Shown here: positions 20,369-26,401 of the stretch, piece after piece
Layout: every line of letters starts with the position of its first letter
Position numbering within the stretch: the stretch's first letter is position 1
IMG/VR virus record: IMGVR_UViG_2667527770_000005
Span: 14,376 to 78,375 of that record
Origin: a virus
Taxonomy: Duplodnaviria > Heunggongvirae > Uroviricota > Caudoviricetes
Strand: one strand, 5' to 3'
DNA length: 64,000 bases
Translations under genes and position numbers: made by a program
The notes under the pieces: generated by a model
Told to the model about the DNA's origin: nothing
Databases searched by the model: none
The model's input: only the letters and a program-made list of their open reading frames with translations

Positions 20369-21931
20369 ATGAAAATGACAAGTATTCAACAACGTGCAGA
20401 GCTTCATCGTCAAATCTGGCAAATTGCTAACGATGTCAGAGGTTCGGTCGATGGATGGGATTTTAAGCAATACGTTCTGGGCGCGCTTTTCTACCGTTTT
20501 ATCAGCGAAAATTTTTCCAGCTATATTGAAGCCGGTGATGACAGCATCTGTTATGCGAAACTGGATGACAGCGTAATTACTGATGACATTAAAGACGATG
20601 CCATCAAAACCAAAGGCTACTTCATCTACCCAAGTCAGCTTTTCTGCAACGTAGCTGCGAAAGCAAATACCAATGACAGACTGAATGCAGATTTAAACAG
20701 CATCTTCGTTGCTATCGAAAGTTCTGCTTACGGTTATCCTTCAGAAGCTGACATCAAAGGTTTGTTTGCTGATTTCGATACCACCAGTAACCGCCTGGGT
20801 AACACCGTTAAAGATAAAAATGCCCGCCTGGCTGCGGTTCTGAAAGGGGTTGAAGGGTTAAAACTTGGTGACTTCAACGAACATCAGATTGACCTGTTCG
20901 GTGATGCCTATGAGTTCCTGATTTCTAACTATGCGGCAAATGCCGGTAAGTCAGGCGGTGAGTTCTTTACACCGCAGCACGTCTCCAAGCTGATTGCACA
21001 ACTGGCTATGCACGGGCAGACCAACGTTAACAAAATCTACGACCCGGCAGCGGGTTCCGGCTCACTGTTGTTGCAGGCTAAAAAGCAGTTTGATAACCAT
21101 ATCATTGAAGAAGGCTTTTTCGGACAGGAAATCAACCATACGACCTATAACCTGGCACGTATGAACATGTTTTTGCACAACATCAACTACGACAAGTTTG
21201 ATATCAAGCTGGGCAATACGCTGACTGAGCCGCACTTCAGAGATGAAAAACCGTTTGATGCCATCGTATCTAACCCACCGTATTCGGTGAAATGGATTGG
21301 CAGCGATGACCCGACGCTGATTAACGATGAGCGTTTTGCCCCGGCTGGCGTTCTGGCCCCCAAATCCAAAGCTGACTTTGCGTTTGTATTACATGCGCTG
21401 AACTATCTTTCGGCCAAAGGTCGCGCTGCGATTGTCTGCTTCCCGGGCATTTTTTACCGTGGCGGCGCAGAGCAGAAAATCCGTCAGTATCTGGTCGATA
21501 ATAACTATGTCGAAACCGTGATTTCACTGGCTCCGAACCTGTTCTTTGGCACCACCATTGCCGTCAATATTCTGGTGTTGTCTAAACATAAAACCGATAC
21601 CAAAGTTCAGTTTATTGACGCCAGCGAATTATTCAAAAAAGAGACTAACAACAATATCCTGACCGATGCCCATATCGAACAGATTATGCAGGTATTTGCC
21701 AGCAAGGAAGATGTTGCTCATCTGGCGAAATCAGTCGCGTTTGAGACTGTTGTCGCGAATGACTATAACCTGTCGGTGAGCAGTTATGTGGAAGCGAAAG
21801 ATAACCGCGAAATTATCGATATTGCTGAGTTGAATGCAGAGCTGAAAACCACGGTCAGCAAAATCGACCAGTTGCGTAAAGATATTGATGCGATTGTAGC
21901 TGAAATTGAAGGCTGCGAGGTACAGAAATGA
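20369..21931 (+). CDS. hsdM: Type I restriction-modification methyltransferase subunit HsdM, 520 aa
   Basis: NPPYS catalytic motif; N-terminus [17 protein letters not shown] typical of type IC HsdM; ATGA overlap with hsdS. Confidence 0.95.
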
Positions 21932-23163
21932 GCGAGTTGAGTTATCTGGAAAAATTGCTGGATGGGGTTGAAGTTGAGTGGTTGCCATTGGGGGAAATAA
22001 CCAAATATGAACAGCCAACAAAGTATTTGGTAAAAGCAAAAGATTATCACGACACATATACAATACCGGTTCTTACTGCCGGAAAAACATTTATTCTTGG
22101 ATACACAAATGAGACTCATGGTATTTATCAGGCATCAAAGGCACCTGTAATAATTTTTGATGATTTCACCACCGCTAATAAATGGGTGGATTTTGACTTT
22201 AAGGCAAAATCATCGGCCATGAAAATGGTTACATCATGTGATGATAATAAAACCTTACTGAAATATGTTTACTATTGGCTCAATACATTACCAAGTAAAT
22301 TCGCAGAGGGAGACCATAAACGCCAATGGATTAGTAATTATTCTCAAAAAAAAATCCCAATTCCCTGCCCGGATAATCCGGAAAAATCCCTTGCCATCCA
22401 GTCCGAAATTGTTCGGATTCTGGATAAGTTTACTGCACTTACCGCTGAGCTTACCGCTGAGCTTACCGCTGAGCTTAACATGCGTAAAAAACAGTACAAC
22501 TACTATCGCGACCAGTTGTTGAGTTTTGATGAGGAGCAGGAAAAACCTATTTATCTGGAAAAATTGCTGGATGGGGTTGAGGTTGAGTGGTTGCCATTGG
22601 GGGAAGTCTCAGCCTTAAGAAGAGGCAGAGTTATGTCAAAGGGATATTTAACTGAAAATTTTGGCCCATATCCTGTCTATAGCTCTCAAACTGCAAATAA
22701 TGGGAAAATAGGTTCTATCAATACCTTCGATTTTGATGGCGAATATATAAGCTGGACAACAGATGGCGCAAATGCAGGCACTGTGTTCTATCGAACAGGT
22801 AAATTTTCAATAACTAATGTTTGCGGCCTGATTACATTAAAAAATAAATACCCATTAATCTACAAATTTCTGTTTTACTGGCTAACAATAGAAGCCAAAA
22901 AACATGTTTACTCAGGAATGGGAAACCCCAAGTTAATGAGTCATCAGGTTGAAAATATACCTGTACCAGTCCCCTGCCCGGATAATCCGGAAAAATCCCT
23001 TGCCATCCAGTCTGAAATCGTTCGGATTCTGGATAAATTCGACACCCTGACCAACTCCATCACCGAAGGTCTCCCGCGTGAAATCGAGTTGCGCCAGAAA
23101 CAATACGAGTACTACCGTGATTTACTGTTCAGTTTCCCGAAACCTGAAGCTGTCAGTAATTAA
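21928..23163 (+). CDS. hsdS: Type I R-M specificity subunit HsdS (type IC, EcoR124-like), 411 aa
   Basis: Two target-recognition halves with duplicated conserved segments; central TAEL x3 repeat. Confidence 0.9.
22438..22473 (+). repeat. 12-bp tandem repeat CTTACCGCTGAG x3 encoding [12 protein letters not shown] in hsdS central conserved region
   Basis: Read directly from sequence. Confidence 0.95.
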
Positions 23164-23284
23164 TTGACCATTGCTACCGACCGGGCCACCTTAACACCCG
23201 GTCAGTATATAGACTATTTTTTACACGCTGGAAGTCACCATTAACGCCCTTCCGGCCCTTGCCAGACGGCACAAAGGATGCGCT

Positions 23285-26200
23285 ATGACTCATCAAACAC
23301 ACACCATTGCTGAATCCAATAACTTTATCGTTCTTGATAAATACATCAAAGCTGAGCAAACAGGCGACAGCTATCAGAGCGAATCGGACCTGGAACGTGA
23401 ACTGATTCAGGACCTGCAAAATCAGGGCTATGAATTTATATCCGTAAAATCACAGTCAGCGATGCTGGCCAACGTTCGGGAACAGCTTCAGAGCCTCAAT
23501 GGTGTGATGTTTAATGACAGCGAGTGGCGGCGTTTCACGGAGCAGTATCTGGACAACCCGAGCGATGGCATTCTGGATAAGACCCGTAAAATCCATATCG
23601 ACTATATTTGCGACTTTATTTTTGATGACGAGCGACTTGAGAACATCTATTTGATAGATAAAAAGAATCTCATGCGCAATAAGGTGCAGATTATCCAGCA
23701 GTTTGAACAGACGGGTTCTCATGCTAACCGTTATGACGTCACGATCCTGGTTAATGGCTTACCACTGGTACAAATCGAACTGAAAAAGCGCGGCGTGGCG
23801 ATTCGTGAGGCTTTCAACCAGATACATCGTTACAGTAAAGAGAGTTTTAACAGCGAAAACTCCCTGTTTAAGTATCTGCAACTGTTTGTCATTTCTAACG
23901 GCACCGATACCCGTTATTTTGCCAACACAACAAAGCGCGATAAAAACAGTTTTGACTTCACCATGAACTGGGCGAAATCAGACAACACGCTGATTAAAGA
24001 CCTCAAAGATTTTACCGCTACCTTTTTCCAGAAACATACTCTGCTTAATGTTCTGGTGAACTACAGCGTTTTTGACAGCAGTCAGACGCTACTGGTGATG
24101 CGACCGTACCAGATTGCCGCCACCGAACGAATCTTATGGAAAATCAACAGCTCCTATAAAGCGAAAAACTGGTCTAACCCCGAAAGCGGTGGCTTTATCT
24201 GGCACACTACCGGTTCTGGTAAAACACTGACCAGCTTTAAAGCCGCGCGTCTGGCAACAGAACTGGACTTTATTGATAAAGTCTTCTTCGTGGTCGACAG
24301 GAAAGACCTCGATTACCAGACCATGAAGGAATACCAGCGTTTTTCGCCAGACAGCGTCAACGGCTCGGAAAATACCGCAGGTCTTAAACGAAATCTGGAT
24401 AAGGACGATAACAAAATTATCGTCACCACTATTCAGAAACTTAATAACCTGATGAAAGCAGAAAGCGACCTGCCTGTATACAATCAGCAAGTGGTGTTTA
24501 TATTTGATGAATGCCACCGCAGCCAGTTTGGAGAAGCGCAGAAAAACCTGAAGAAGAAATTCAAACGCTATTATCAGTTTGGTTTTACCGGCACACCTAT
24601 TTTCCCGGAAAACGCTTTAGGCTCAGAAACGACCGCCAGCGTATTTGGCCGTGAATTGCATTCGTATGTGATTACCGATGCGATTCGAGATGAAAAAGTG
24701 CTTAAATTCAAGGTGGACTACAACGATGTGCGGCCACAGTTTAAGTCTTTAGAGACAGAAACCGACGAGAAAAAACTGAGTGCGGCTGAAAATCAGCAGG
24801 CGTTTCTTCATCCCATGCGTATACAGGAAATTACGCAATATATTCTGAATAACTTCCGCCAGAAGACCCACCGTACTTTCCCAGGTTCCAAAGGCTTTAA
24901 TGCCATGCTGGCAGTGAGTAGCGTGGATGCCGCGAAAGCCTATTACGCGACGTTTAAACGGTTACAAGAGGAAGCAGCTAATAAATCGGCTACCTATAAA
25001 CCGCTGCGTGTTGCGACAATCTTCTCCTTTGCCGCCAATGAAGAACAAAATGCCATTGGTGAAATTTCCGATGAAACTTTTGATACCAGCGCAATGGACA
25101 GCAGTGCTAAAGAGTTTCTTGACGCTGCAATTCGTGAGTATAACAGCTATTTTAAAACTAACTTCAGCACCGACGGTAACGGTTTTCAGAACTACTATCG
25201 CGATTTAGCCCAACGGGTTAAAAATCAGGATATCGATCTGTTAATTGTCGTGGGGATGTTTTTAACTGGCTTCGATGCTCCAACATTGAACACGCTATTC
25301 GTCGATAAAAACCTGCGTTTTCACGGCTTGATGCAGGCATTTTCCCGCACCAACCGTATTTATGATGCAACTAAAACCTTCGGTAATATCGTCACTTTCC
25401 GGGATCTGGAACGCTCAACTATTGATGCCATAACGCTGTTTGGTGACAAAAACACCAAAAATGTGGTTTTAGAAAAGAGTTATGCAGAGTATATGGAAGG
25501 CTTTACTGATGCTGCCACTGGTGAAGCTAAGCGCGGCTTTATGGCAGTAGTTTCAGAACTGGAACAACGGTTCCCTGACCCTGCCAGTATTGAAAGTGAA
25601 AAAGAGAAGAAAGACTTCGTTAAACTGTTTGGTGAATACCTGCGTGCCGAGAACATCCTGCAAAACTATGATGAATTTGCCACGCTGAAAGCCCTGCAAC
25701 AAATCGATCTTAGCGATCCTGTTGCGGTAGAAAAATTCAAAGCAGAACATTATGTGGATGATGAAAAATTCGCTGAATTGCAAACAATTCGTCTCCCTGC
25801 TGATCGCAAGATTCAGGATTATCGTTCTGCCTATAACGATATTCGCGACTGGCAGCGCCGTGAGAAAGAAGCTGAGAAAAAAGAGAAATCAACCACTGAC
25901 TGGGATGACGTAGTTTTTGAGGTCGATTTGCTGAAGTCTCAGGAAATAAACCTGGATTATATCCTTGGACTGATTTTCGAACACAACAGACAAAATAAAG
26001 GCAAGGGCGAAATGATCGAAGAGGTCAAACGCTTAATTCGTTCAAGCCTAGGGAACCGTGCTAAAGAGGGCCTGGTGGTCGATTTTATTCAGCAAACGAA
26101 CCTGGATGATTTACCGGACAAAGCCAGCATCATTGACGCATTCTTTACGTTTGCTCAACGCGAACAGCAACGTGAAGCAGAAGCATTGATAAAAGAAGAA

Positions 26201-26401
26201 AATCTCAATGAAGATGCAGCAAAACGCTATATTCGCACGTCTTTAAAACGCGAATATGCCACCGAAAATGGCACAGAATTAAACGAAACATTACCAAAAC
26301 TTAGTCCGTTAAATCCGCAATATAAAACGAAAAAACAGGCAGTTTTCCAGAAAATCGTCTCGTTTATTGAGAAGTTTAAAGGCGTAGGCGGAAAAATATA
26401 G
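23285..26401 (+). CDS. hsdR: Type I restriction endonuclease/translocase subunit HsdR, 1038 aa
   Basis: Walker [13 protein letters not shown] box ([12 protein letters not shown]); 1038 aa as in EcoR124 HsdR. Confidence 0.95.

Follow-up and report, generated by a model that had tools for sequence, protein, structure and literature searches.

A probably intact type IC restriction-modification operon of the EcoR124 family in a P1-like phage-plasmid, at the variable slot between phd/doc and pap

The presence of three adjacent hsd genes in a P1-like phage-plasmid raises the questions of whether they amount to a complete restriction-modification (R-M) system, how such an operon relates to the P1 DNA around it, and what it recognizes. 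The locus occupies positions 20369-26401 of the window analyzed here, a stretch of 64,000 nucleotides (nt) that corresponds to positions 14,376 to 78,375 of the IMG/VR record IMGVR_UViG_2667527770_000005 (Caudoviricetes). Judged from sequence comparison, the operon is, with a probability of roughly 0.9, an intact type IC (EcoR124-family) R-M system, and the accessory cassette of 6.2 kb to which it belongs fills the variable slot between phd/doc and pap. An earlier note, made from the letters of the DNA alone, had proposed a complete EcoR124-family operon outside the P1 backbone and had implied that the arrangement was new; the first part of this proposal is borne out below, and the second is not.

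The three genes lie on the same strand as full-length open reading frames (ORFs), each with an ATG start. In particular, hsdM (20369-21931, +) encodes the N6-adenine DNA methyltransferase subunit of 520 amino acids (aa) and matches TIGR00497 with 648 bits; hsdS (21928-23163, +) encodes the 411-aa specificity subunit with two target-recognition domains (TRDs) and matches Methylase_S twice; and hsdR (23285-26401, +) encodes the nuclease/translocase subunit of 1038 aa and matches TIGR00348 with 759 bits. The sizes and positions given earlier for these co-directional genes are thus exact to the base. Frameshifts, which the earlier note had named as a reason to abandon its reading, are absent, as seen both in the ORF list and in the end-to-end alignment of HsdM and HsdR to the EcoR124 proteins. 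The start of hsdS overlaps the end of hsdM by 4 nt (ATGA), whereas hsdR is set apart from hsdMS by a gap of 121 nt, and the order hsdM-hsdS-hsdR is that of type IC systems. PADLOC calls the three genes MTase_I, Specificity_I, and REase_I, which together with the profile searches gives the three separate subunits, HsdM, HsdS, and HsdR, of a type I R-M system.

The type IC family was originally defined via complementation and hybridization; here, the assignment follows from the close relatedness of HsdM and HsdR to the EcoR124 family and is one of sequence only. HsdM is identical at 518 of 520 residues to the EcoR124 HsdM chain in a cryo-EM structure (7bst_D) and also matches the families N6_Mtase and HsdM_N. 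Its S-adenosylmethionine motif I (DPAAGSG, residue 225) and motif IV (NPPY(S), residue 302) are intact, as in gamma-class N6-adenine methyltransferases. HsdR aligns with the EcoR124I subunit 2w00_A over all 1038 residues (2274 bits, approx. 18 substitutions, ~98% identity), and its C-terminal 129 aa do not differ from those of EcoR124 HsdR. In addition to its TIGR00348 match, HsdR contains the domains HSDR_N, SWI2_SNF2, ResIII, T1R_D3-like, and EcoR124_C (241 bits). The nuclease residues D151, E165, and K167, the Walker A motif GSGKT at 310, DECH at 408, and QAFSRTNR at 684 are all intact, so that the subunit combines a PD-(D/E)xK nuclease with a superfamily 2 ATPase motor, as is characteristic of type I enzymes. 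Both the EcoR124-family assignment made in the earlier note and the motifs that it had named (NPPYS, Walker A, and DECH) therefore hold.

HsdS is a mosaic. Residues 1-204 match EcoR124 HsdS (7bst_A) with two substitutions and one extra TAEL unit, and residues 357-411 correspond to its C-terminal conserved region, whereas residues ~205-356 gave no match to the EcoR124 C-terminal TRD of 7bst_A in the PDB sequence search. The N-terminal TRD (21997-22356, +) is of the EcoR124 type, with two substitutions in residues 1-170 relative to 7bst_A, and the EcoR124 N-terminal domain is known to read GAA (Loenen et al. 2013, Table 2, PMC3874165; PMC10644984). It is followed in the central conserved region by three tandem 12-nt repeats (22441-22476, +) that encode TAEL at residues 172, 176, and 180 (span 172-183), in line with the two or three copies found in type IC subunits. 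The copy number of this repeat sets the length of the spacer: EcoR124I, with two copies, recognizes GAA(N6)RTCG, and EcoR124II, with three, recognizes GAA(N7)RTCG; EcoDXXI and EcoprrI likewise have three copies (PMC3874165). Because an EcoR124-type N-terminal TRD is combined here with three TAEL repeats, the target of this HsdS is predicted to be GAA(N7) followed by a half-site of 3-5 bp that would be read by the C-terminal TRD, hereafter TRD-X (22606-22965, +). An EcoR124II isoschizomer, i.e., GAA(N7)RTCG, was considered and rejected: the C-terminal recognition domain is unrelated to that of EcoR124, and the target is therefore expected not to be GAA(N6/7)RTCG. The three 12-nt repeats would also permit switching between N6 and N7 spacers.

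The base composition of hsdS sets it apart from its neighbors. Its guanine-plus-cytosine (GC) content is 0.399, compared with 0.455 for hsdM, as had been remarked in the earlier note, 0.435 for hsdR, and ~0.47-0.50 for the P1 flanks, and the two recognition domains reach only 0.336 and 0.358. Each of these domains is framed by direct repeats. A 55-nt repeat lies upstream of both (21942-21996 and 22551-22605, +; 98% identical) and a 74-nt repeat lies downstream of both (22357-22430 and 22966-23039, +; 93% identical), the two copies being spaced by 609 nt in either case. Moreover, TRD-X is found at 98-100% identity in both positions of HsdS: it is N-terminal in pET6.1-IncY and in the IncF plasmid pYDC107_184, and C-terminal in pPSS-10_1, in NZ_CP062902, and in the window. 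In PLSDB, 15 plasmids contain at least 80% of a 506-nt query comprising TRD-X and its framing repeats, and in database fragments TRD-X is partnered by at least five different domains and by one, two, or three TAEL units. On these comparisons, TRD-X is a mobile module that is exchanged between HsdS positions. There is a precedent for such diversification among type IC systems, as the N-terminal GAA domain of EcoR124 corresponds to the C-terminal GAAY domain of EcoDXXI (PMC3874165, Table 2).

Single-domain HsdS homologues of TRD-X, of ~200 aa and 60-80% identity, are numerous and occur in Citrobacter, Haemophilus, Gallibacterium, Moraxella, Aggregatibacter, and metagenomes. Recombination between the copies of the 55-nt or 74-nt repeats would give a single-domain HsdS. 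Subunits of this kind, as in deletion mutants of EcoR124I and EcoDXXI, homodimerize and read palindromic sites.

The limits of the cassette were drawn by comparison with other hsd elements and with P1. The DNA between the P1-like flanks that is not of P1 origin spans 20270-26476 (+). Its left boundary, 20270, is where homology starts to hsd elements that have no humD or hot, namely vB_EcoM-673R5 and pYDC107_184 (an IncF plasmid), where hsd directly adjoins phd; on the right, P1 homology reaches back from downstream to 26477, which equals P1 84482, upstream of pap. The cassette takes the place of P1 upfO, upfN, upfM, pmgV, pmgU, and pmgT, which lie between hot and pap, and neither blastn nor the annotation revealed hsd homology at this slot of reference P1 (NC_005856). 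The operon is thus indeed outside the P1 backbone. The right junction falls at the same base in the window, in an IncY P1-like plasmid, and in an IncF plasmid, and the three are identical there; in the IncF plasmid, P1 homology extends 84 bp past the junction and is followed by IS1. The operon therefore has the P1-homologous flanks of type IC loci, with phd/doc on its left and the DNA upstream of pap on its right.

A very close relative is the hsd locus of pPSS-10_1 (E. coli PSS-10, NZ_AP027686.1), which shares 99.8% DNA identity over 18400-27200 and the same flanks; its HsdM and HsdS do not differ from those of the window, and its HsdR differs at one residue; nothing notable distinguishes the two, and the annotation of that plasmid, by the Prokaryotic Genome Annotation Pipeline (PGAP), is generic and gives no specificity. 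Among the characterized systems, EcoR124I and EcoR124II (from R124 and R124/3; PDB 2w00 and 7bst) share the gene order, nearly all of HsdM and HsdR, and the N-terminal TRD and conserved regions of HsdS. EcoR124II also has three TAEL repeats, and R124/3 has the same 84 bp of P1 DNA downstream of hsdR. These systems differ in their C-terminal recognition domain and in their host, an IncF conjugative plasmid instead of a P1-like phage-plasmid. EcoDXXI, too, is a type IC system, and its HsdS has three TAEL repeats; its locus has phd/doc on the left and DNA upstream of pap on the right, with the same right junction at P1 84482, and it resembles the present system in having a recognition domain that can be used in either position (GAA in EcoR124, GAAY in EcoDXXI). 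However, its left P1 DNA ends at the end of phd, whereas in the window it continues through humD and hot. Were TRD-X the TCA domain of EcoDXXI, the present enzyme would be a permuted EcoDXXI and would be expected to read GAA(N7)TGA, the EcoDXXI site on the opposite strand.

The novelty implied in the earlier note proved unfounded, as type IC hsd operons at this P1-like position are common and were already known in 1997. The GenBank record of P1 describes its phd/doc region as '98 pct identical' to conjugative-plasmid DNA upstream of the EcoDXXI hsd locus, and its DNA from P1 84482, i.e., from the same right junction, as 96 pct identical to DNA downstream of that locus; a further match, 98 pct identical to R124/3 DNA downstream of hsdR, spans the same 84 bp. 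Tyndall et al. (1997; Mol Microbiol 23:729) reportedly dealt with the P1-homologous flanks of the EcoDXXI and R124/3 hsd loci. Their article appears among the references of PMC12707154 (ref. 364) and PMC2853133 (ref. 24). In PLSDB, the junction between hsdR and the pap region is found in 258 plasmids, compared with 636 that carry at least 80% of pap-pmgS (~40%), and the left junction of the window, between hot and hsdM, is found in 61; at least 80% of window 18400-27200 is present in 66 complete E. coli genomes. Among phages, the same slot is occupied by hsd genes in two Punavirus records, vB_EcoM-673R5 and phi456, where they are split or interrupted by insertion sequences (IS) as annotated. 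In vB_EcoM-673R5 (3387-9338), hsdM is annotated as 468 + 924 nt and hsdR as 2250 + 264 + 237 nt, which points to either frameshifts or errors of sequencing in this record. In the conjugative IncF plasmid pYDC107_184 (1267-11380), pdcA-doc-phd-hsdMSR lies between IS5, on its left, and IS1, on its right; the P1 homology is truncated by this IS1 at exactly the base at which the R124/3 match given in the P1 record stops. The cassette with its P1-derived flanks is the same unit that occurs, trimmed by IS elements, on conjugative plasmids of the IncF group, R124 among them. Phage-plasmids and plasmids exchange genes, and R-M systems have been listed among these (Pfeifer & Rocha 2024, PMC10879196).

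The element has no EcoP1I res/mod genes, and this raises the question of whether it exchanged one restriction system for another. EcoP1I of reference P1 resembles the present operon in being a phage-plasmid-borne R-M system that is expressed from the prophage, but it is a type III system with other genes and in another slot (P1 3.5-9.8 kb). In the window, a 1.4-kb segment replaces P1 res/IS5/mod (P1 3468-9750) and encodes a 434-aa SIR2_2-domain protein (7620-8924, -; PF13289, 83.8 bits; PDC-S25/ThsA-like in PADLOC). The earlier note's picture of a swapped restriction strategy is therefore correct as to the absence of res/mod and the SIR2 gene in its slot; evidence for one coupled event was not found. 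That a single event or a selective trade-off replaced type III EcoP1 by type IC, the two being mutually exclusive alternatives, is unlikely, even though the window itself carries hsd without res/mod, the three P1-like plasmids with res/mod that were sampled all have other contents and no hsd in the hsd slot, and the sole phage record with both loci has an interrupted hsdS. That phage, phi456 (a Punavirus P1 isolate, OR339795.1, 1583-8817), combines res/mod at 100% identity with type IC hsdM and hsdR, and an insertion of ~1 kb, with an ORF of 981 nt annotated as 'putative baseplate hub protein', divides its hsdS. The three-of-three result has a p of ~0.2 at a base rate of 40%, the plasmids sampled do not represent independent lineages, and three plasmids and one phage are too few for a conclusion on exclusivity. 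Moreover, the two loci lie ~12 kb apart in separate slots, each of which has several alternative contents (P1-type pmgT-V, Ea22/DUF551/methyltransferase, or hsd), and the res/mod slot is occupied by the SIR2-domain gene instead of being vacant. The hsd junction is found in 258 plasmids and res/mod matches in 108, only 48 of them at 99% identity or more, as well as in 8 phage records; therefore, most P1-like plasmids carry neither system or only hsd. The simplest reading of these sequences is that there are two separate variable slots and that reference P1 represents the rarer state at both.

If the operon is an intact type IC system, its mode of action may be predicted by analogy with EcoR124. 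The M2S1 complex would methylate adenines on both strands of its bipartite site, and HsdR would join it through an inactive, cleavage-incompetent R1 intermediate to give R2M2S1, which on unmodified DNA would reel in the DNA on either side at the expense of ATP and cut far from the site. In a lysogen, host and plasmid DNA would thus be marked, and incoming unmodified phages and plasmids would be restricted. The R1 intermediate of type IC enzymes provides restriction alleviation that is independent of ClpXP and allows efficient establishment in naive cells without killing (PMC12707154). Entry of this kind would fit a genome that arrives by infection. It has also been proposed that R-M systems may spread selfishly as a poison and its antidote (Pfeifer & Rocha 2024, PMC10879196), and hsd accompanies phd-doc in all contexts seen (P1-like, IncY, and IncF), which would suit an operon that acts with the adjacent phd/doc mainly as a plasmid-stabilizing (addiction) module and not as a defense against phages. 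Such a role is distinctly improbable here, as type IC restriction alleviation shields unmodified host DNA and so argues against strong post-segregational killing (PMC12707154), EcoR124II measurably restricts phages (PMC10644984), and the adjacency to phd/doc is equally well explained by co-transfer of neighboring DNA.

Several observations weigh against the operon being a working type IC system with a definable target. A simple consensus scan found no promoter-like site upstream of hsdM. The 121-nt gap between hsdS and hsdR (23164-23284, +) does contain a weak promoter-like sequence, TTAACA-18-TATTTT (23191-23220), which is a candidate hsdR promoter, but promoter-like sites occur at chance frequency (13 found vs 12.5 expected), and this sole site upstream of hsdR is no exception. 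The ~18 substitutions in HsdR relative to EcoR124I may affect activity, although none of them hits a known catalytic residue. Finally, the half-site of TRD-X could not be assigned: the PDB sequence search matched the conserved regions alone, a search of a collection of 5.8 billion proteins returned only generically named and mostly truncated HsdS proteins, an exact cluster look-up gave nothing, and the literature on GAAN7-type motifs yielded only EcoR124I/II and an unrelated Salmonella GAAN7RTAC. That the operon is a decaying or silent remnant, with intact-looking genes that are unexpressed or inactive in this element, is nevertheless very improbable, since the damage seen in other copies (hsdS interrupted by IS elements in phi456 and several plasmids; hsdM and hsdR split in the vB_EcoM-673R5 annotation) and the want of a strong promoter in the consensus scan stand against three full-length ORFs with intact motifs, only 2 substitutions in HsdM and ~18 in HsdR relative to proteins of proven activity, and HsdM and HsdS identical in an independent plasmid (pPSS-10_1), as under purifying selection or recent transfer.

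A further regulatory element lies beyond hsdR. The C1 operator OpmgT/Op88 (ATTGCTCTAATAAATCT) is kept at 26652-26668 (-) with one mismatch to the consensus, and the OpmgT promoter, which drives pmgT-pmgV in P1, is convergent in the window and faces the 3' end of hsdR. It is a highly speculative suggestion that prophage induction would give rise to antisense or convergent transcription that dampens HsdR and thereby couples restriction to lysogeny; separately, and just as speculatively, GAA(N7) combined with TRD-X may be an uncatalogued specificity.

The DNA around the cassette is mostly of P1 type. By blastn, window 1-7578 corresponds to P1 17327-9750 (darB, ulx, lxc), 7579-8980 stands in place of P1 mod/IS5/res, 8981-12449 corresponds to P1 3468-1, 16500-19717 extends from pacA to humD, 19781-20019 contains hot, and from 26477 onward the window follows P1 from 84482 (pap upstream, pap, pmgS, and so on). 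The left flank, comprising doc, phd, humD, and hot (18604-20017, -), is 94-97% identical to P1 and was identified from this homology, from matches to Peptidase_S24 and DNA_pol3_theta, and from the pPSS-10_1 annotation. The lxr gene, which reference P1 has between humD and hot and which the earlier note had placed beside the operon, is missing; 63 bp (19718-19780) separate the humD-side and hot-side P1 blocks, and the left neighbors of the operon are instead humD, hot, and a 250-bp segment foreign to P1 (20020-20269). This segment also adjoins hot in P1-like plasmids without hsd at that place (for example NZ_CP047013.1, 92% identical). The coordinates place the LexA-box region, upstream of humD, inside the retained P1 homology. 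Two ORFs of 77 and 70 aa between hot and hsdM had no Pfam match and are not counted as genes. The right flank upstream of pap (26477-26700, -), defined by an alignment of the window, P1, IncY, and IncF sequences, begins with the 84 bp (26477-26560) that also lie beside hsd on IncF plasmids and includes a terminator-like hairpin (26595-26619, +) found by a terminator scan. A hydrophobic ORF of 28 aa (MNTAFKIIMAAIYFWLFSITFGSIVAHG; 26481-26567, -) lies in this P1-derived flank, almost wholly inside the 84 bp shared with IncF plasmids, and at the equivalent place of pET6.1-IncY PGAP annotates a hypothetical protein of 44 aa. No Rfam family was matched in 18500-27500.

Taken as a whole, the locus adds little that is new: the operon is real, appears intact, and is ordinary for its position. 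Its value is chiefly one of annotation, as the limits of the cassette, the mosaic make-up of HsdS, and the target GAA(N7)NNN predicted for it may serve the interpretation of methylomes and transformation or transduction work with carrier strains. It also illustrates an old point, namely that type IC systems in enterobacteria have one of their main carriers in P1-like phage-plasmids, and that reference P1, with its type III res/mod genes and without hsd, is atypical of the P1-like family.

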